Below are positions 6,435 through 61,280 of a stretch of 61,280 nt of DNA, in pieces (the stretch's first letter is position 1; each line of letters opens with the position of its first letter). This stretch comes from an uncultured Fibrobacterales bacterium. GTDB taxonomy: Bacteria; Fibrobacterota; Fibrobacteria; Fibrobacterales; CAWVXU01. The stretch covers positions 1-61,280 of the forward strand of contig CAWVXU010000006.1 of the NCBI GenBank assembly GCA_963934255.1. The letters run 5' to 3'. The position numbers and the translations under genes are program-made. The notes beneath the pieces were generated by a model that saw only the letters and a list, made by a program, of their open reading frames with translations, did no database searches and had not been told where the DNA came from.

Positions 6435-6842
6435 ATGAAAAAAATTACACTTGCATTAGCACTTACTGCATCTATAGCTCTTATGGCTTGTGGCGAAGAA
6501 AAAACAGCTGAACCAGCACAAGCACCTGCAGCACCTGCAGCTGTTAAAAGTGACGAAGCTAAAGCTGAAAATAATAAAGTTATCAAAAACGCTGTTCGCA
6601 AGCGTTGTCAGCTAAAATTAAAAGCTAAAAACCAAGGAACTCCAGAAGCACAAGCTGAAGCTGACGCTTTCGTAGCAAAATTTGCTGAGAAATTTGCAAA
6701 AACTCCACAAGAAAAAATCAAAGCTCTTAAAGCTGAAATTGGTGCTTGTAAAAAACTTATGGGCGATACAGCTCAAGCAGCTCCTGCTGCAGAAGCAAAA
6801 GCTGCTGCACCTGCTGCACCTGCTGCACCTGCTGCAAAATAA
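6435..6842 (+). CDS. Small Ala/Lys-rich lipoprotein (C-x46-C paralog 2)
   Basis: Lipobox LMAC; AAGGA RBS; AAP repeats at C-terminus; followed by a terminator. Confidence 0.8.
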   Translation: MKKITLALALTASIALMACGEEKTAEPAQAPAAPAAVKSDEAKAENNKVIKNAVRKRCQLKLKAKNQGTPEAQAEADAFVAKFAEKFAKTPQEKIKALKAEIGACKKLMGDTAQAAPAAEAKAAAPAAPAAPAAK

Positions 6843-23480: not shown

Positions 23481-24122
23481 GTGAGGCATCTGTTGGGTAT
23501 ACTGTTTATTTTGTTTTTGGCAAGCTCATTGAGTTTAATGGGTTGTTCTAGATTATCGCCTGAGGTGATAAGTGTTTCAAATTCATCCAATAGTAATGAT
23601 GATTTGACTTTTAAGGAACTACATACCTTAGAATTACCCCATGGAGAAGTTGCCAAGATGACTTCCGATGGGACGACTGCCGATGGGATGACTGCCGATG
23701 GGGTGACTACCGATGGGTTAAGTGGGAATTATGAAAAAGTCAAAGATTACTCGCGAGGACTAGGATTTGGTAAAGAAACACCAATAGATCAGCAATTAGA
23801 AAATAAAGAATTTTATATTGAGAATTTTTCTAAGGCCAATAAAGAGGCAGCACACGCTCGTGCTTTGAATAACTCTCAATCAACAGATAAAGCTTCAACT
23901 GAGCGTTATACTCTTCAATTTGCTACCATCGGAAATTTTGACGCAGCTCAGGCTCGTAAATATCAACTGACTGAAGCCTATGGTTTGTCACTTTATCTAA
24001 AGTTTGACCCACCATTTTATAAACTACAAGCCGGACACTACACTGATAAACAAAAAGCCGAAGATCGAGCTGCTGACCTAAGAGATAGTGGCATTTCTGC
24101 TTTTGTAGTGAAGCTTAATTAA
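23481..24122 (+). CDS. SPOR-domain lipoprotein
   Basis: Lipobox LMGC; C-terminal YTLQFAT...YKLQAGHY...AFVV SPOR pattern. Confidence 0.8.
   Translation: MRHLLGILFILFLASSLSLMGCSRLSPEVISVSNSSNSNDDLTFKELHTLELPHGEVAKMTSDGTTADGMTADGVTTDGLSGNYEKVKDYSRGLGFGKETPIDQQLENKEFYIENFSKANKEAAHARALNNSQSTDKASTERYTLQFATIGNFDAAQARKYQLTEAYGLSLYLKFDPPFYKLQAGHYTDKQKAEDRAADLRDSGISAFVVKLN
23658..23717 (+). repeat. In-frame 15-nt tandem repeat, 4 copies
   Basis: ATGACTTCCGATGGG / ACGACTGCCGATGGG / ATGACTGCCGATGGG / GTGACTACCGATGGG, encoding xTxDG four times. Confidence 0.9.
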
Positions 24123-39518: not shown

Positions 39519-39603
39519 TTTAATTTCCTTTAAGTTATTATTCTATTTCAATTCTATTTCAAATCAATTTCTAACTGATGTTGTAACAAATAAAGATTAG
39601 TTG

Positions 39604-52460: not shown

Positions 52461-53894
52461 TTATTGAACTTCTGTAGTAATAAAGATGACCAATTCCTTT
52501 TTTTCTTGAGTCTCATAGCTCCACCTGAAAAGGGCTCCAAGGATAGGAATGTCCCCTAATAGTGGAATCTTGCGTTGGATTGATTTGTCCTTAGTTTGTT
52601 GAAGGCCTGAGATCCTCACAGTTTCTCGATCATTGATTCGAACAATCGATGATGACTGTTTGATGTCAACGATAGGCGCTGTAGATCCGATAACCGATGT
52701 AATTGTCCCGGTTAAATCGGTGAGTACGGGATCAACTATGAGCGTGATAATAGAATCACTGCTGATCTGAGGTGTGATTGAAATCCATGCACCAAGTGAG
52801 ATGAGTTCTGCTTCCTCAGTCACTGTTCTAGCTCCAGTCTCTGCATTAATCTCAGTCGTTGTTGTGAAGTACGGATATAGTGTACCGACTTTAACTACAG
52901 CTGTTTGATTATGCATTGTAATAATACGGGGCTGGCTCACAGCGCGAACTTCACCTTGCTCTCTTAAAGCTGTGATAGTTGTGGTCATTTTATCACCCAT
53001 GAACCCCAAGTTAGCAAGGATTGTATTAGGCTTATAGCTGTCTGTTAAGCCGTTTGACGTTGAAATGCCTTTGTCTAAGCCAGCATTACCAACAAGCCCA
53101 TCAACATAACCCCAGTCAACGCCTAGCGAGTTGTCTTCACTAAGGATGACCTCATAGATACGTGCAGTGATAATCACTTGACGTGTCAGTATTGGGGCTA
53201 CTTTTTCAAGATAATTTTGAATAGTATTGAGTGTCTTTGTATTAGCTTGGATATAAATAACACCCGTTAAATAGTTAATAGAAAATTTGTCATTTTCATC
53301 AACTAAGGCTGTGATCATCTCCTTTATTTCAGCCCAAAAATCCACTTTGTCTTCTGACTTTAAGGAGACTTTGGCGGCACGACCATCAATTCCATTGACA
53401 GCGCCTTCAAGTTCTGAATTTGAAGTTCTTCCCATACGTGGGTAATTTATTGTGATGATGCGATAAGTGTCATCACCTTCAACTTCCATCCCTCGAAATG
53501 CCTTTTTTATTTTTGGCTCTGGTTTGTGACCAATGATTAACTGATTATTTGCGATCTTCCACTCAATACTATCTGATTCAAGGATTTTATTGACTGCAGA
53601 ATTAAGATCTAAATTGGTAAATTCAACATTACGATTACCCACAAGAGGTTGGTAAGTTTTTAGGGTCAACCCTGCACTTTGAGCAAATAAGGCCATTGCA
53701 GTGTGAAGCTCTACTGAATGAGCTTTGAAGCTGAAGCCACCAGAGTTGGCAATTTTACTACTATCTCCTTGGACTAAATATGAACCCTCTGATCCGCTTG
53801 AATCTTCATAAGTGATGTTAGGTGTTTCTAGCGGGCTCTCTTGAGCAAATAAGCTACAAGTGAGCAGGGTACTCAAAATGGCTAATTTAATCAT
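52461..53894 (-). CDS. Secretin (MshL/PilQ/GspD family)
   Basis: QVIITARIYEV, LGVDW, SQPRIITMHNQTA and KIPLLGDIPILGALF motifs. Confidence 0.92.
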   Translation of the reverse strand: MIKLAILSTLLTCSLFAQESPLETPNITYEDSSGSEGSYLVQGDSSKIANSGGFSFKAHSVELHTAMALFAQSAGLTLKTYQPLVGNRNVEFTNLDLNSAVNKILESDSIEWKIANNQLIIGHKPEPKIKKAFRGMEVEGDDTYRIITINYPRMGRTSNSELEGAVNGIDGRAAKVSLKSEDKVDFWAEIKEMITALVDENDKFSINYLTGVIYIQANTKTLNTIQNYLEKVAPILTRQVIITARIYEVILSEDNSLGVDWGYVDGLVGNAGLDKGISTSNGLTDSYKPNTILANLGFMGDKMTTTITALREQGEVRAVSQPRIITMHNQTAVVKVGTLYPYFTTTTEINAETGARTVTEEAELISLGAWISITPQISSDSIITLIVDPVLTDLTGTITSVIGSTAPIVDIKQSSSIVRINDRETVRISGLQQTKDKSIQRKIPLLGDIPILGALFRWSYETQEKKELVIFITTEVQ

Positions 53895-54451
53895 GGTGTC
53901 GCCTTTGGTTTAAATATAAATTTTTGTTTTTGGTGGTTGAGAATAAACTCAACAGTGTCTTTTAATTGAGGACTGAGGTCCTTGATTTTTACAGTTTTTC
54001 CGCCGATTAAAGCTAAAGTATCTTGGGTGCCAATAGATATAGCTTGTACAAAATTTGACTTGCGATAATTTCTGGATCGATATCGTTTGGTAGGTTTGAC
54101 GGCTTGTTCAGGTCTTAAGTCTACAGTTTGAGCATGTCTTTTTCGGTTTTCAATTCTAAATGGATCACGAGAGAAATCAAATACCCAGCTAGGCTTCCAA
54201 TGATTGATTACATTAGAATCATAGGTGAGAACTTTTAAGTTTTTGCTGTTTTCTTCTGATTCGTTGTTTTCATCATTGTCGAAATTTTCATCTTGATGAG
54301 GATTTTTGGCTTTTGCAACTTTAACTTTAGCTTTGGAGTCCAAACCAAGCATAGGACGCATCACATTCCAGTATAAGTAAAAGCCAGCCAGCAAGACAAG
54401 TATAAGAACGACAATAGGGTTTTGTAATAGTTTTTTCATTGGCGAATCCAC
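53891..54451 (-). CDS. Pilus-associated protein (PilP/MshK-like position)
   Basis: N-terminal TM; RDPF motif; directly upstream of the secretin. Confidence 0.55.
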   Translation of the reverse strand: MDSPMKKLLQNPIVVLILVLLAGFYLYWNVMRPMLGLDSKAKVKVAKAKNPHQDENFDNDENNESEENSKNLKVLTYDSNVINHWKPSWVFDFSRDPFRIENRKRHAQTVDLRPEQAVKPTKRYRSRNYRKSNFVQAISIGTQDTLALIGGKTVKIKDLSPQLKDTVEFILNHQKQKFIFKPKATP

Positions 54452-54993
54452 CCACCTAAAGTCACTATGGATTGAGTGACACCTGCTGTATCTGCATTAA
54501 CGATGAGGCTTTTAATGAACAAACTTTTTGTAGAATCTTCGGTACTTGCCTGCAGGAATGTCAAAAGTGAAGTGAAGTCTTGATTAAAGAAGTTAAGCTG
54601 ATAATTAATGTTAACCTCTTGTGTGGTTTTATGCCCTTTAGGGTGAAGAATAAGAGGGGCAATTTCATATTGGTAGCCCAACATATTTTGTTCGGTAATC
54701 GTTCTGTTATTCTCAACCCAATGGGCAACATCAATCCAACTTGAAAATACGTTAAGTTTTGCTAATGAGTCTGTAAGAACAACAATACTATCGGTAGTCT
54801 TTGCTTGAATTACTTTTAAATCAGTCTGAGAATCTTCAAAGTCCTGAATAATACTCTGTTTTTCTTGGATGGCTTCTTTTGTGTTGTATATATCCCACAA
54901 AAAGAGCAGGCTTAAAACAAAGCCAGCGGCAATGGTGAGCTTAATTGCAAACCTAACGTTTTCTTCTTTGAGAAATAGCTTCATCATATTCAT
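54436..54993 (-). CDS. PilO/MshJ-like bitopic protein
   Basis: One TM, coiled coil, C-terminal F..LL.FL..IKSL pattern; operon position. Confidence 0.55.
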   Translation of the reverse strand: MNMMKLFLKEENVRFAIKLTIAAGFVLSLLFLWDIYNTKEAIQEKQSIIQDFEDSQTDLKVIQAKTTDSIVVLTDSLAKLNVFSSWIDVAHWVENNRTITEQNMLGYQYEIAPLILHPKGHKTTQEVNINYQLNFFNQDFTSLLTFLQASTEDSTKSLFIKSLIVNADTAGVTQSIVTLGGWIRQ

Positions 54994-56399
54994 TCTTGAA
55001 GCACTCCTGAAAGGTGAAATGGTTTGTTGACTGAATTTAAGTCACTATTATGGCCAAATTTCAAATTCTCCAGCCATGAAACCTTCCAAGCAATTTTAAG
55101 GTTGAGGCGACCAAAATCTTCAGTCGCATTATTTTCAAATTCTGCTAGGAGTTTTGCTGCTTCAATTGGATCTCTAGGGGATTTCCCAAATATATCGATA
55201 TGCCAGACCCCAGGTAAACTGTCTCTAATGACTTTAGTGTCAGTCAAGACAAGGTTGTCTGGGATGTGTTCTGAAAAATATATCATTAGCCAAGCTGGAA
55301 TAGGTTGATTGGAATAAGTCTTGACCAAAGTTTGCTGATCTTTAGACTTGTTGATAGATTCTAAAACCACTTGCTTGTTTGAAATTTTTGTTAAAATTTC
55401 AGTAGATTTTTCGACGATTTTTTCAACTTTAATCTTGTCAGCTAAAGCAAAATCAACACTGTGTAGATATAAATTCCAAATAAGCATAGAGATAAAACAA
55501 AGTGAAGAAACAATGAAAGTAAATAGAGCTTTACGTAAAGTACTCTGAATCTGTTGAATCCGAATAGGTATCAGATTATAGGATTCAGACACACTAGAAA
55601 GCTGTAAGTCTTGAACCCAGTTTTGTTTTGAATCTAATTTATAGCTTAATTCATCTAGGAGTGAGCACAAAATATCTCTATTTTCATAAAGCTCTTCGCC
55701 ACAAAAGACAATCTGTTTAGGGAAAAATTTAAACTGTTGTTTGCCGTAGAGCCAAGTTCTCTGAATCTCACGAGAGAGGCGGTCAAATTCTTCTTTGCGA
55801 TCTAAAAAAGACGTATAAGGCATCTCTCTTATAATCACTGGTTTTCCATTAGAAGCTAATACTACAAGAAGTGCATCATCATCATCATAAATGAGAATAT
55901 TATCTTCACCGGGGCTTGTTTTGACACTACTATTAAACAATGCTAAGGCGTGTGTAGGGATGGCCTTTAAGGGGAGGATATTGTTTTTGCGGGAAAGTCG
56001 TATAAATTCATCAATGTAAAGGCTATCAAGAGTAAATGTAAATACACTATCCTTTTTACCCTCTGGTAAGATTAAGTTATAAAAACTCGAATGATACTCT
56101 TTAGAACTATTCCATTCTTTTTTAACATGCCCTTTAATAAAATTTCTTTTTTCTTTTGGTGTTAGAAAGGGAAGAGTAAATTGGTTGAGTTTTAGGTTTG
56201 TATGGCGTATTAATAAAGATGATTCAATCACTTCTTTTAACTTGAGGTGTTGATACAATTCTTCAAAAAGCTCAGGGGCTTTTTTCTCGCTACTAATCAG
56301 AACAGAGTTTGTTTGGACTATAGTCCCGTTCTCATCAAAGACTTCTGCGCTAAGAGCAAAAGGCTCCCAATAAACTAATAATAATTGTTGTTTTTTCAT
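54990..56399 (-). CDS. PilM/PilN (GspL/MshI)-like alignment protein
   Basis: Cytoplasmic domain (REIQRT, YNLIP), then TM and periplasmic PilN-like IPDNLVLT. Confidence 0.6.
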   Translation of the reverse strand: MKKQQLLLVYWEPFALSAEVFDENGTIVQTNSVLISSEKKAPELFEELYQHLKLKEVIESSLLIRHTNLKLNQFTLPFLTPKEKRNFIKGHVKKEWNSSKEYHSSFYNLILPEGKKDSVFTFTLDSLYIDEFIRLSRKNNILPLKAIPTHALALFNSSVKTSPGEDNILIYDDDDALLVVLASNGKPVIIREMPYTSFLDRKEEFDRLSREIQRTWLYGKQQFKFFPKQIVFCGEELYENRDILCSLLDELSYKLDSKQNWVQDLQLSSVSESYNLIPIRIQQIQSTLRKALFTFIVSSLCFISMLIWNLYLHSVDFALADKIKVEKIVEKSTEILTKISNKQVVLESINKSKDQQTLVKTYSNQPIPAWLMIYFSEHIPDNLVLTDTKVIRDSLPGVWHIDIFGKSPRDPIEAAKLLAEFENNATEDFGRLNLKIAWKVSWLENLKFGHNSDLNSVNKPFHLSGVLQE

Positions 56400-56693
56400 T
56401 TATGGACATACCTGTAAATAGAGCCAATCATAGGTGGATCCTGGAGGTGTGTTACCACGGTTGCTATTTTGAAGTGAACGATAGACTCTTAAGTCAGCTG
56501 TATAATAAGCTTCATTGGCATTTTGATAGCTTGTTGTTGCGCTCCATAAAGAATAGGCTCCACAAGTAGCTGAATTACTACTACTTCCTCCTCCGCTAGC
56601 TGAAGCGCCTGGGTTGAAACCTTGATTTGTTAAGTATGCACCATCTATGGTGCCACTTACTTTAGCGCGCCTATAAGCTGTTGAATTATTCAT
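56400..56693 (-). CDS. 97-aa ORF: duplicated pilin tail, Gly/Ser linker and CBM5/12-like module
   Basis: ATG overlaps the pilin stop (TAATG); C..W...Y.....Y.....Y......P.....W....C pattern. Confidence 0.6.
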   Translation of the reverse strand: MNNSTAYRRAKVSGTIDGAYLTNQGFNPGASASGGGSSSNSATCGAYSLWSATTSYQNANEAYYTADLRVYRSLQNSNRGNTPPGSTYDWLYLQVCP

Positions 56694-56783
56694 TATAAGG
56701 TGTAACCTTGATTTGTTAAGTATGCACCATCTATGGTGCCACTTACCGTAGCACGCGTATAAACTGTTGAATTCTTCATTATA
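56618..56783. repeat. Tandem direct repeat, 80-nt copies at 86-nt period
   Basis: 56618-56697 vs 56704-56783; 6 mismatches; a 43-nt block is identical. Confidence 0.95.
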
Positions 56784-57436
56784 TATTGAGTCGTCACACT
56801 CGAGGGCCATGGTCGTTCATCGGCAATAGCAGTTGAATTAACCGCCCATGTTGCTGGAGGACTTAAAATGTTCATGACAAATGGTTGAAAAATCCCACCA
56901 AGGGAAATGCGTTGAATAACCACTGAGTCACTGAGGGAGAAACCTGCAGGAATTGTCCCGCTTTGGCTCCAAACGGCATCAAATTGAGCTTGGTTTAAAG
57001 TGGTGGCAGGTAGGTCCTCAACAACATTAGAAATAAGCAGTATTTGAGTGTTGGTTGGCTTAGTCGTGGTCAGGGTGTTATTTGCTAAAAACAATGAATC
57101 TTGATTGTAGGAATCTGCAGGAAAATTATCAATGGTGAAACTTGGGTGAACAATGTAACGTCGAGTACCGGATTTTGTTGCTAATAAATCCGTCGCGGAA
57201 AGAGTTGTGTAATTTGAAAGGCTAACAGCCCAAACTGCGTTACTGGGGATAATATGATTGTCTGTAATATAAGTGGTGAGTGATTCTGCTATATCAGAAA
57301 GAGTTTCTACTTCTTGATCATAGGTTGCATTCTTAATTTGGTTAATAATTGAAGGAGTGGCCGCGGACAATACAATGGCAATAATAGCCAATACGCCAAT
57401 GAGTTCTATTAAGCTAAAGCCTTTTTGATATTTCAT
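56693..57436 (-). CDS. Minor type IV pilin/pseudopilin
   Basis: Prepilin site KG|FSLIELIGVLAIIA with E5. Confidence 0.88.
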   Translation of the reverse strand: MKYQKGFSLIELIGVLAIIAIVLSAATPSIINQIKNATYDQEVETLSDIAESLTTYITDNHIIPSNAVWAVSLSNYTTLSATDLLATKSGTRRYIVHPSFTIDNFPADSYNQDSLFLANNTLTTTKPTNTQILLISNVVEDLPATTLNQAQFDAVWSQSGTIPAGFSLSDSVVIQRISLGGIFQPFVMNILSPPATWAVNSTAIADERPWPSSVTTQYIMKNSTVYTRATVSGTIDGAYLTNQGYTL

Positions 57437-58665
57437 TTGATGCCCCCAGTGATTGATAAAATTGGAAGGAAAATAGAAAGTGCGACAAAACCTACAATCC
57501 CTATTAATGTTAAGATAAGTGCTGGTTCAAGTAAACTTAAAACTTTTTTTAGCCGTCTTGGAATTTCTTCATCATAGAATTTAGTGGCTTGATCAAGTGA
57601 GTATTCTAATTTACCTGAGCTCTCACCAACAGCAACCATCCTCATAATAAGGCTAGAAAACACACCAGTATCCCTCATTGAATCCGTTAATGAGCGGCCA
57701 TCTCGAATATCATCTTTGACTCGAGTAATTGCAGATTGATATATACGATTGGGCACAAATCGATAACAAAGGTCTAAGTTTTCTAAAATGGAAATTCCGG
57801 CTTTGTGGATAATTGTAAAATTATGTACAAATCGCGCTTGCAGAACAATTGAGGTAAGTGGACCAAAAATAGGAATTTTTAATTTAATCCTATCGACTTC
57901 ATAGTGAAAAGTCGCATTATGTTTGTAGAAATACATCGTAGTCATAACTGTGATAACAATTGCTGCAAATGTATATAGACCATAGTTCAGAATAAAGTCG
58001 GAAATTGCCATCACTACCTTTGTCATCCAAGGGAGTTCGACTTTGAGATCCACAAGTATTTTGACAATCCCTGGTACAATTGATGAAAATAGAAAGAGAA
58101 TAAATATCCCAACAACTACCGCAACGATGGAAGGGTATACTGTAGCTTGGGACATTTCAGATTTTATTTTTTCACTCCATTCTAAGTATTTTTTAAGTTC
58201 GTTCAAGGCGTTGGGTAAGGTACCAGATTTTTCACCAGCTTTAATGAGATAAGTGAATTCATCTGAAAAAACTTTAGGATAGTCAGCCAGGGAATCACTT
58301 AAAGAAGCACCATTGGTAACCCGGATATAGAGGTCTTTAATGACATACTTAAAGTAGGGGTTTTTGACTTCTGGGATAAAGTCCTGTATTGATTGAGTCA
58401 GAGAGACACCTGCCTCAACGAGTACTGATAAATGAATACAAAATTCAATTAATTCACGTGTTTTAACACGCCGCGGAGTTTTAGAATCTTCACTATCTAC
58501 AGACAGATGAGTTATAATACTATACCAAGGGGCTTGTCTGATTTGAAGGTAATCAATCCTACGGCGATTTAAATCAGATTCTAATTCAAGAATAGATTCA
58601 AAATCTTCAACCACCCACGAGGTTTTACCTTTGAGATCAACTAAGGAATATTCGTATTTAGCCAT
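57433..58665 (-). CDS. PilC/GspF/MshG platform protein
   Basis: AGEKSGTL, YPSIV, VGESSGKL and LLEPAL motifs. Confidence 0.93.
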   Translation of the reverse strand: MAKYEYSLVDLKGKTSWVVEDFESILELESDLNRRRIDYLQIRQAPWYSIITHLSVDSEDSKTPRRVKTRELIEFCIHLSVLVEAGVSLTQSIQDFIPEVKNPYFKYVIKDLYIRVTNGASLSDSLADYPKVFSDEFTYLIKAGEKSGTLPNALNELKKYLEWSEKIKSEMSQATVYPSIVAVVVGIFILFLFSSIVPGIVKILVDLKVELPWMTKVVMAISDFILNYGLYTFAAIVITVMTTMYFYKHNATFHYEVDRIKLKIPIFGPLTSIVLQARFVHNFTIIHKAGISILENLDLCYRFVPNRIYQSAITRVKDDIRDGRSLTDSMRDTGVFSSLIMRMVAVGESSGKLEYSLDQATKFYDEEIPRRLKKVLSLLEPALILTLIGIVGFVALSIFLPILSITGGIK

Positions 58666-60347
58666 TAGCCCACTAACCTTCTAACTTCATCGAGCGAGGT
58701 TAATCCTTTGCTTGCTTTTGCAACACCGTCATCAACCATAAAAGCTTGGGTGTCTTGAAGATATTCTGAAATTTGGCGCTCAGTAATCCCAGGGACAAGC
58801 ATCTCTTGAATACCTTCGTCAATTTCGAGTAACTCATAAACTGCAACTCGACCATGGTAGCCTAAATTATTACACTCACTACATCCGACGGGTTTTTTGA
58901 AGTTGTACTTTGTTTCACTGACGTCAAAGTCGGCGTTTTTTGTGAGACTTTTAAGATACTGTTCTGCGTTTTCATCTCTTTGTGAACAAATGGGACATAA
59001 ACGTCTCACTAGACGTTGTGCCACGACTAAACAAAGTGAGGAGGATAATAGGTAAGGTTCAATCCCCATATTAATAAGTCTAGGGATAGCTCCAATTGCA
59101 CTATTTGTGTGCAAAGTAGAAAGAACCATGTGACCTGTTAATGCAGCTCGAACAGCAAGTTGGGCAGTTTCTTCGTCACGAATCTCACCCACAAGAATCT
59201 TATCTGGATCCTGGCGAAGTAGTGATCGTAGTCCTTCGGAGAATGTGAGTCCAACATCAGGTCTTACTGCAACTTGTCGAATGTTGATGAGGTCATATTC
59301 AATTGGGTCTTCTAATGTGAATATCGAGTAGTCGGTTGAATTCATAGTAGAAAGCGCTGCGTAGAGTGTAGTGGTTTTACCTGATCCTGTGGGACCTGTC
59401 ACAAGTATAATACCGTTGGGTTTATCGATAAGTTTTTTGAACTTCGTTAGTTCTTTTTCTTCCATACCCAAGTATGTGAGGTCCAATATGGTCATCTGTT
59501 TGTCAAAGATCCTCATCACAACACTTTGGCCGTATTGAGTTGGGAGGGTAGATACCCTTATGTCGATGTTTTTTTGACCAATATGGAATTCAATTCGTCC
59601 ATCTTGAGGAACTCGATGTTCTGTAACATCAAGATTGGCCATGACTTTAATACGCGCTTCAACTGAAGCTTTTAGACTTATTGGAAGTAGGCATTCTTGA
59701 TAAAGTATTCCGTCAATTCGGTACCTAATTCTAAGACTTGTTTTCTCTGGCTCAATATGAATATCTGTTGCTCTTTTTCTTGACCCATCAATAATTAGCT
59801 GATCAACAAGTCGAACTAGCGCTGCTGCTTCACCAGTCTCCGATTCATCTGCTGCAATTGTGAGCTCTTTAATCGCATCATCAATTATGGAGCTAATATC
59901 TTCAGCTTGGGTGTATTGCTGAATAATGGCTTCTTGAATGGATTGTTTGGTAGCGGCGACAACTTCAATATGAAAACCTGTCATCTTCTTGATGCGGTCA
60001 ATGGTCACAACATCAAAAGTATTAGCTAAGGCAACTTTTAGAGTTGACTCGGTTATGTCGATTGGGATGACTGTATTTGCTTGGGCAAAGTCTTGAGGGA
60101 TTTTCTTAATCGTCTCAATATCAATAACAATATGTTCAAGGTCCATATACTCTGTCTGAGACTCATCAGCTACGAGTTTGGATATTTCATATGCGGTTAC
60201 AAAACCTAAATCATTTAGGATGTCGCCCAAGAACCCACCATTACGCTTTTGTTCAGCTAGTGCTAGTTGGAGTTGGTCGCGACCTACGAGACCTGAATCT
60301 ACAAGTATTTCACCGAGTCGTTTTTTACGTGGAGTGACATCTGTCAT
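58665..60347 (-). CDS. PilB/GspE/MshE assembly ATPase with MshEN domain
   Basis: RLGEILV.SG...LAEQ; TDIHIEP, PQDGR, GPTGSGKTTT, LRQDPD, TGH; CxxC...CxxC. Confidence 0.95.
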   Translation of the reverse strand: MTDVTPRKKRLGEILVDSGLVGRDQLQLALAEQKRNGGFLGDILNDLGFVTAYEISKLVADESQTEYMDLEHIVIDIETIKKIPQDFAQANTVIPIDITESTLKVALANTFDVVTIDRIKKMTGFHIEVVAATKQSIQEAIIQQYTQAEDISSIIDDAIKELTIAADESETGEAAALVRLVDQLIIDGSRKRATDIHIEPEKTSLRIRYRIDGILYQECLLPISLKASVEARIKVMANLDVTEHRVPQDGRIEFHIGQKNIDIRVSTLPTQYGQSVVMRIFDKQMTILDLTYLGMEEKELTKFKKLIDKPNGIILVTGPTGSGKTTTLYAALSTMNSTDYSIFTLEDPIEYDLINIRQVAVRPDVGLTFSEGLRSLLRQDPDKILVGEIRDEETAQLAVRAALTGHMVLSTLHTNSAIGAIPRLINMGIEPYLLSSSLCLVVAQRLVRRLCPICSQRDENAEQYLKSLTKNADFDVSETKYNFKKPVGCSECNNLGYHGRVAVYELLEIDEGIQEMLVPGITERQISEYLQDTQAFMVDDGVAKASKGLTSLDEVRRLVG

Positions 60348-60452: not shown

Positions 60453-61088
60453 TTATTCGCTTGCAACAAAAATGATTAAGTTAGTTCCGTCGTATTTGAC
60501 TTTACCAGCAGTTGTTGGGTCAGTTCCTTGACTGCCATCAATGATTGCATCAACCTTTTCATACATAGAATTTGTGATTTCTTCAATTCTTAACGAAACA
60601 ATGTGATCACCAGATGATATTGATCCGGTGCCTGTGAATTGTAAGTCAAAGTCAGTATTTGTAGAGTTACTTAAAGTTCCATCTCCTGTGCTAATGTCTA
60701 AACCCATTGCTTCACCAGTTGGTGGTGAAGCTTGTACAAACTCATCGAGGTATGGACCGCGAAATTTTTTCCAGTCGTTTCCGTTATTGGCAGCAATCTT
60801 AGTATGTGTCAAAAGAGCTGAGAATGAGTTATTGTTATTTGCATCAACACGAGAGTAACTCATGTTCATATTACCGTTGGTACGGTTGGTAGTTCCAAGT
60901 GTGTTAACGTCAGCAAAGTATTTAGTAGTTGCTGTTTGCACTGTTTTGTGAAGACTGGCGATGTTGTTTGCTTTTGATTCTTGAATTGCTTCAAAGATAC
61001 GAGGGGCGACTGCACCGACTAAAATAGCGATGATGGCCAGTACACCAATCATTTCGATGAGAGTAAAGCCTTGATATTTCTGTTTCAT
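60453..61088 (-). CDS. Probable major type IV pilin
   Basis: QG|FTLIEMIGVLAIIA; GGAG RBS before MKQKY; own terminator. Confidence 0.88.
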   Translation of the reverse strand: MKQKYQGFTLIEMIGVLAIIAILVGAVAPRIFEAIQESKANNIASLHKTVQTATTKYFADVNTLGTTNRTNGNMNMSYSRVDANNNNSFSALLTHTKIAANNGNDWKKFRGPYLDEFVQASPPTGEAMGLDISTGDGTLSNSTNTDFDLQFTGTGSISSGDHIVSLRIEEITNSMYEKVDAIIDGSQGTDPTTAGKVKYDGTNLIIFVASE

Positions 61089-61280
61089 AATGTCTCCATA
61101 GGTCATTGTAAAGTTTTCCTTACGTTAAGTATGGTAAACAAATAGAAGCTAGTCAACATATAAATTTTGACAGTCAACGAGCTGACTGGGGGGTCTCGTT
61201 TTGATAGAATTATAGTATTAACAATTTTTTTGATAGTAATTCATTGATTTGCGTCTGTGGACGAATTTAAAATGGGACAA

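Follow-up and report, generated by a model that had tools for sequence, protein, structure and literature searches.

A pilin gene in an uncultured Fibrobacterales bacterium appears to have lost its C-terminal module for good through one small duplication. We read the locus as an old and fixed 86-nt split of a former pilin-linker-module gene, whose loose, signal-less piece is likely decaying and would not be the off state of a switch, and we give this reading a probability of about 0.7. The locus lies on the minus strand of a 61,280-nt stretch of DNA, called the window below.

The split gene sits in a type IV filament operon that runs on the minus strand through a 217-aa pilin, PilB/GspE, PilC/GspF, a 247-aa pilin, the 97-residue ORF2, three genes without family match and a secretin. 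The 217-aa pilin (60453..61106; PF07963) is probably the major subunit, judging by its position. It is followed by the PilB/GspE ATPase with an MshEN domain (58665..60347; PF00437, PF05157) and the platform gene (57433..58665; PF00482, E 5e-50), which overlaps the start of the next pilin by 4 nt; the secretin (52461..53894; PF00263, E 3e-35) comes last. The 247-aa pilin-like protein (56693..57436) combines a class III signal peptide (G-F-x-x-x-E plus hydrophobic helix) with matches to PF07963 (33.7 bits, cut-off 21.2) and TIGR02532 (27.1 bits, cut-off 16.3), and ends in ...NQGYTL*. With an ATPase, a platform protein and a secretin encoded alongside, it qualifies as a type IV pilin or pseudopilin, and a pilus and a type II secretion system are both compatible with this set. 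More prepilin-like genes are found outside the operon on genome contigs C103, C43 and C38, several of them grouped on C103.

ORF2 (56400..56693, minus strand) consists of a duplicate of the pilin's terminal peptide, a Gly/Ser linker and a CBM5/12-like module (residues 44-97; 56403..56564) with Cys44 and Cys96 at its ends. It contains no hydrophobic signal stretch, its best 9-residue hydropathy being 0.38 compared to 3.68 in the pilin, and the initial annotation was right to describe it as lacking an export signal. Its stop adjoins the start of a 469-aa gene (54990..56399, minus strand) that is PilM/GspL-like by position alone, has no family match and has its counterpart as the same neighbour in syntenic loci. 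Close to its start, at window 56376, the 469-aa gene carries an in-frame deletion of 3 nt in the sequencing runs X6 and X7.

The junction between pilin and ORF2 is built from two copies of one sequence. A repeat search returned a direct repeat of 83 nt per copy at 56615-56697 and 56701-56783 (92% identity, spacing 86), and a tandem-repeat search an array of period 86 at 56618-56783. Read on the minus strand, the exact 86-nt units extend from 56781 to 56696 and then from 56695 to 56610. Copy 1 (56696..56781) provides the last 28 pilin codons and has kept the ancestral residues, while copy 2 (56610..56695) is the source of the pilin TAA and the ORF2 ATG and encodes the duplicate peptide, which is drifting. 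Of the 86 positions, 10 differ between the copies, which are 88-92% identical overall; at the changed residues of the 5' half, the alignment gives K, V, T and T in copy 1, as in fused homologues, and N, A, R and K in copy 2. Each unit starts with TAATG, so that joining two units writes the pilin stop and the ORF2 start together, with an overlap of 1 nt. Wherever the crossover is placed (87 of 87 points), removing one period yields a frame of 316 aa. The sole stretch in which such a collapse leaves no new junction is an identical block of 43 nt (56618..56660, unstranded, equal to 56704-56746), which reappears as a 43-nt unitig in assembly graphs; the unit ends have just 2 nt in common. The geometry described by the initial annotation (an 86-nt duplication with TAATG overlap and 97-aa ORF, a shared 43-nt block, and a 316-aa frame after deletion of one period) is thus confirmed by coordinates and translations.

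Among 12 families of direct repeats in 54000-59000 the 86-nt repeat is the only long one, the runner-up measuring 30 nt at 70% identity, and a blastn search of the genome found no third copy. Short tandem repeats occur elsewhere in the window, at 23657-23717 (15 nt x 4.1), 6802-6836 (9 nt x 3.9), 6521-6541 (9 nt x 2.3) and 39540-39571 (11 nt x 2.9). A diversity-generating retroelement was ruled out, as the differences between the copies are not adenine-specific. The ORF2 frame is also open for 41 codons 5' of its ATG (window 56693-56816), which gives a 136-aa ORF from 56810.

The duplication is real DNA and is seen in the assembly graphs of three studies. The evidence comes from assembly contigs and unitigs. 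The depths given below are unitig means of 2-15 and hence rough, and if the copies collapsed within the identical block, depth alone would show it. Six runs cover the junction: X1-X4, from one study and a strain with its own SNPs, as well as X7 and X9, which along with X5 and X6 (both outside the junction) represent four other studies. The graphs of X1-X4 each contain a flank, the 43-nt unitig at about twice the flank depth, a 103-nt inter-copy unitig and a second flank, and no one-copy joint is listed in them. Relative to the flank, the inter-copy unitig has depths of 0.69, 1.02, 1.15 and 1.00, and the identical block has depths of 1.49, 2.39, 2.43 and 2.00 (pooled 2.07). X1, at a depth of about 11, is the sole run whose values would suit a sizeable one-copy fraction. 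A 116-nt piece from X9 spans the junction without differences from the window, and locus L009, which may be the window's own source, has both copies with 1 mismatch in 1692 nt.

The strain of run X7 is about 96% identical to the window (45 differences in 1109 nt and 58 in 1747 nt). Its unitigs of 36 nt and 110 nt again give a period of 86, and its joint skips 122 nt, which corresponds to 36 nt (12 codons) missing from copy 2. According to the unitig table, in which the letters of X7 are not visible, its pilin end (window 56696-56783) differs by 16% compared to about 3.5% elsewhere. The split is likely old, because 10 of 86 nt now separate the copies and this strain, roughly 4% diverged, has the same period.

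All recorded alleles, the window's included, are split (3/3 for the 247-aa pilin, 4/4 for the 97-aa ORF2), and a one-copy allele was found neither among the three pilin alleles of the species nor in the six junction-covering runs or locus L009. A count of one-copy and two-copy alleles, which the initial annotation had suggested making on reads, was carried out on the assembly graphs; it returned the two-copy state only, with a pooled inter-copy depth ratio of 0.93. The accompanying worry of an assembly artefact proved unfounded. The window does stem from a 138-contig assembly, which would be the one point in favor of an artefact, but the copies differ from each other and the junction recurs in runs of three studies from strains with their own SNPs, leaving this explanation with a next to negligible probability.

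What did the gene look like before the duplication? Beyond the species, the three closest homologues (identity 46-55%, length 321-334 aa) carry the same linker and module at their end. Counting cluster members and P0022, fused sequences of pilin, linker and module total seven in four clusters, all of 321-334 aa, and they support an ancestral pilin-linker-module fusion, as the initial annotation had proposed from the window alone. The module of the window is 45-51% identical to these relatives and the pilin part 52-54%. Alignment and a structure model of the fused homologue P0002 (mean pLDDT 74.5) suggest that the pilin stop coincides with the last predicted strand of the pilin domain in the fused relatives; in the model this strand spans residues 251-253, followed by a low-confidence linker at 256-288. 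A modular pilin carries its C-terminal module in the same polypeptide, which is so in P0002, P0003, P0004, P0016-P0018 and P0022, and not in the split allele of the window.

Outside these clusters the module is rare. Among 147 family representatives and 10 first-round matches, the CBM profile finds only P0002, P0003, P0004 and P0022. A search across the phylum matched 11 of 296 genomes, own genome included, and in the eight loci examined all complete syntenic orthologues (7/7) are 251-292 aa long and without module. The distance from their pilin stop to the next ATG is -1 to +2 nt in 7/7 orthologous loci, and three syntenic loci read whole by eye have the platform gene and a relative of the 469-aa gene as neighbours. 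Of the 41 near genomes, 6 contain the pilin, own genome included, the other 5 being matched via the signal region alone, as is the case for the one same-family genome (78% complete). The 469-aa gene was not found in any of the five genomes searched with it, and by eye no obvious module was present in the 8 loci translated out of 75 distant-pilin loci. A search for longer proteins containing ORF2 returned 0 of 358 candidates, but also missed the known fused homologues and is uninformative. Looking for orthologues in relatives, another of the checks proposed at the outset, therefore gave a twofold answer, with seven fused homologues on the one hand and seven complete, module-free syntenic orthologues on the other. 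Since the wider family and the syntenic orthologues are mostly without the module, it was likely added in one lineage and then dropped in the species of the window; that 7/7 complete syntenic orthologues do without it also indicates that it is dispensable.

The family as a whole looks like a carrier for varied modules. More than half of the representatives (87/147) exceed 300 aa and have C-terminal extensions, P0026 and P0028 among them. When 20 members were scanned, the one Pfam name that any extension received was SdrD_B in P0152, with a score below cut-off. Some open frames measured 653-696 aa and were considered as long modular pilins, but were rejected as upstream open frames in GC-rich DNA; their mature lengths are 251-256 aa.

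The nature of the module can be approached through its profile. No match to PF02839 over the curated cut-off was obtained with Pfam for ORF2, the module alone or the fused homologues, the locus is absent from the three PF02839 matches in the genome search, and sequence searches of Pfam, NCBIfam and the PDB returned no match to the module. A profile of the module nevertheless finds P0136 and P0159 through the module alone, both of which are Pfam CBM_5_12 proteins over cut-off. Against a profile of 16 repeats from these two proteins the window's module reaches 34.4 bits, compared to 13.4 for the best of 1000 shuffles (0/1000 reach it), in a test that is partly circular, as the repeats had been picked with the fused-homologue profile. 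CBM_5_12 clusters also rank first in the Atlas, with 0.91 and 187 shared features for the module and 0.82 for P0002, and the Atlas model of the module has a TM of 0.80 to a CBM_5_12 stretch, below the bar of the service. The module model is weak (pLDDT 56), and neither structure model obtained a Foldseek match at E 0.001; for the module, chitinase C of Streptomyces griseus ranks first and the best 9 hits include structures of CBM5/CBM73, with E values of 1.9-3.7 throughout.

The module measures about 54 aa, follows a Ser-rich linker and shows the Trp/Tyr pattern of the Pfam-positive repeats; its aromatics comprise a Y64-Y65 pair, W50, Y56, Y71 and W90. The Cys residues at both ends, 52 residues apart, resemble those of CjCBM5, where the pair is 253-306 (PMC8449059). 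It differs from CBM5/CBM12 in having no direct PF02839 match, and no counterpart was located for the two consecutive surface aromatics (Y-W/W-W) of CBM5. Taken together, profile comparison supports a CBM5/12-like module, which would be predicted to bind chitin. The resemblance to CBM5/12 seen by the initial annotation hence stands at the level of profile homology and Atlas rank and not as a direct Pfam match; the HMM searches it recommended placed PF07963 over its cut-off in the pilin and returned no CBM_5_12 match even in the fused homologues.

The organism is a chitinase-rich marine bacterium: the family search of its genome gave, over cut-off, 10 matches to GH18 and 4 to Fib_succ_major, and there was none to GH5. 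Its genome contains a CBM5/12-like Cys-flanked module in a 321-aa open frame with Ser-rich linker (C87:9796-10758) and a GH18 chitinase with C-terminal modules of the same kind (C75:10850-12676). A Fib_succ_major-like match with two internal TAA stops (C100:404-652) is possibly another broken gene.

Between X7 and the window, 40 of 114 differing places are listed, of which 39 were classified and one in pilC was omitted; 7 of the 45 differences on the left contig of X7 are not visible. In this set, 7 nonsynonymous and 3 synonymous changes fall in the module, a pN/pS of 0.65 that does not depart from neutrality (P 0.37), compared with 10 and 18 (pN/pS 0.14) in the neighbouring 469-aa gene. Nonsynonymous density differs between the two (Fisher P 0.002) and synonymous density is alike (P 0.74); at these small counts the direct comparison of 7/3 with 10/18 is borderline (P 0.078). 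X7 has lost conserved aromatics through Y88S and Y92C. One ORF2 allele carries W50C in a column that is W in 7/7 fused homologues, a change from a single 1360-nt contig that could be an error. Variable sites fall in the module in 0 of 11 cases within the fused clusters and in 4 of 9 in the species of the window (P 0.026). The detached module thus likely evolves at a near-neutral rate as a decaying remnant, to judge from these substitution counts, although the excess of amino-acid change could alternatively reflect diversifying selection.

These observations bear on the reversible adhesin switch put forward by the initial annotation, in which collapse of the repeat would give part of the population the 316-aa pilin-module adhesin back, with the two states alternating. 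The restored frame at every crossover point, the identical block and the depth ratios of X1 (0.69 and 1.49) speak for it. So do signs of exchange between the copies: those of the window are identical over the 3' 43 nt and those of X7 over the 5' 36 nt, and in the pilin end of X7, 8 of 50 nt are not those of the window (for a background of 3.5%, P 0.0005, in a stretch chosen post hoc). Gene conversion between the copies is possible as the simplest reading of these shifted blocks, and as converting DNA can also collapse, and fresh tandem repeats do revert in the penA case given below, occasional revertants are to be expected; a rare revertant as a minority one-copy allele is compatible with the contig-level data. 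There is, however, no sign that revertants are selected or that the cycle closes. Phase variation would call for young, near-identical copies, and here they are diverged from each other and share their period with a distant strain. It would call for coexisting states, and the two-copy state alone is seen in contigs, which hide rare alleles, with one run at 0.69 against the pooled value near unity. It would further call for purifying selection on the silent part, and the ratios of 0.65 against 0.14, at small counts, together with the lost aromatics, point the other way. Collapse would restore the 316-aa frame in the window's strain, but would give in X7 a product short of 12 pilin-domain codons, most of the last two predicted strands, and the return step requires the same duplication anew between unit ends that share so little. 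With no one-copy allele at hand and every allele split, the switch finds little support and we consider it unlikely. A slow contingency variant, in which a bare pilin serves in open water, rare recombinants with a chitin-gripping pilin are selected on particles and the off state is costless through a ribosome relay, seems rather improbable as well.

Known reversible duplications also look different. Tandem duplications within pneumococcal cap3A are reportedly fresh and reversible, with revertants observed. In the penA beta-lactamase gene, for which reversion of de novo tandem repeats at about 1e-6 to 4e-5 is reported (PMC4169377), an in-gene tandem duplication is likewise undone by exact loss that restores the old frame. 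Those duplications are fresh and their revertants were observed, whereas the copies here are 88-92% identical and common to diverged strains, and no revertant was found.

Could ORF2 instead be a separate working protein, a cytoplasmic sugar binder or an exported partner of the pilin under relaxed or diversifying selection? It is open in 4/4 alleles and in X7, and its module is about as similar to the fused relatives as the pilin part. A signal peptide is missing, though, the terminal Cys pair would suit periplasm or surface, conserved aromatics are lost, and among proteins of 53-170 aa no stand-alone relative was found outside the species (1 match of 3 candidates), all of which makes this idea quite improbable. 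Another idea is that ribosomes shifting by -1, or a transcriptional slip, within copy 1 yield some fused protein from the two-copy allele; the pilin gene has 18 open stretches of this kind, and the one before the ORF2 ATG is the longest. With no slippery heptamer near the junction (a single one lies at 56999), no homopolymer run of 6 or more and a module that is not conserved, this appears very improbable.

On the reading of a lasting domain loss, the duplication would have ended the pilin at a predicted domain boundary, with the pilin domain kept at full length and a 97-aa piece without signal left over. The pilin would still be processed and assembled without the module, the pilus would have lost its display, and the ORF2 protein would stay in the cytoplasm. 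Translation of ORF2 probably continues by termination-reinitiation, and at about even odds this ORF may be kept open as a ribosome carrier to the next gene of the coupled operon. From pilB to the secretin the junction spacings are -1, -4, -1, 0, -4, -16 and -4 nt. The -1 TAATG overlap between pilin and ORF2 and the 0-nt gap between ORF2 and the next gene lie within the -8 to +6 nt of termination-reinitiation systems; gaps of about 20 nt nearly abolish such coupling in E. coli and Haloferax (PMC10666635). The present case differs from those systems in that the coupled ORF would be a spacer with a dispensable protein, proposed here from sequence. Had the pilin domain simply been followed by a stop, some 200 bases would lie untranslated ahead of the next gene. 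Both ORF2 indels, of 36 nt and 3 nt, are in frame. An unbroken stop-start chain could therefore explain why the duplication was tolerated and why ORF2 stayed open despite the drift of its residues.

Domain loss may also have occurred without any relay, with ORF2 as simple debris in which no stop has yet arisen and TAATG as a by-product of the junction, a possibility that we hold tentatively and would not favor. The junction makes TAA and ATG automatically, a coupled restart arises by chance in 820 of 5931 modelled module-dropping duplications (14%), and the 3-nt deletion sits in a Ser triplet run. The probability of no stop in 25 substitutions is 0.22, so that an open frame by itself says little for a relay, and the next gene has its own weak AGGT-type motif, which also counts against one. 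Against debris stand the overlaps throughout the operon, the coupling conserved at the pilin junction and the in-frame 36-nt deletion of X7.

Modular pilins are a known and diverse class in which carbohydrate-binding modules are among the common architectures, according to the parts consulted of the work that describes them (bioRxiv 10.1101/2021.01.27.428410). The fused relatives share with PilB/PilC of Streptococcus sanguinis a class III signal and pilin domain, a linker and a C-terminal binding module. The modules named in those parts are ConA-like lectin, PF13620, PA14 and vWA; a CBM5/12-like module is not among them, though the supplements may list it (bioRxiv 10.1101/2021.01.27.428410). 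The species of the window departs from the class in that its module is detached. Type IV pili of Fibrobacterota have been proposed to attach to cellulose or chitin, and in the parts consulted these papers name no pilin fused to a chitin-binding domain (PMC4704652, PMC4814513); the listings of our literature search contained no pilin-CBM5/12 fusion either. The fusion of a pilin to a CBM5/12-like module in marine relatives thus offers a concrete candidate for the proposed contact between pilus and chitin, open to expression and assay. The locus of the window itself would be a record of clean domain loss, in which one duplication ended the pilin at its domain boundary and kept the stop-start chain of the operon intact. 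If it is true that the remnant stays open only as a relay, it would be a natural ORF selected for being translated and not for its product.
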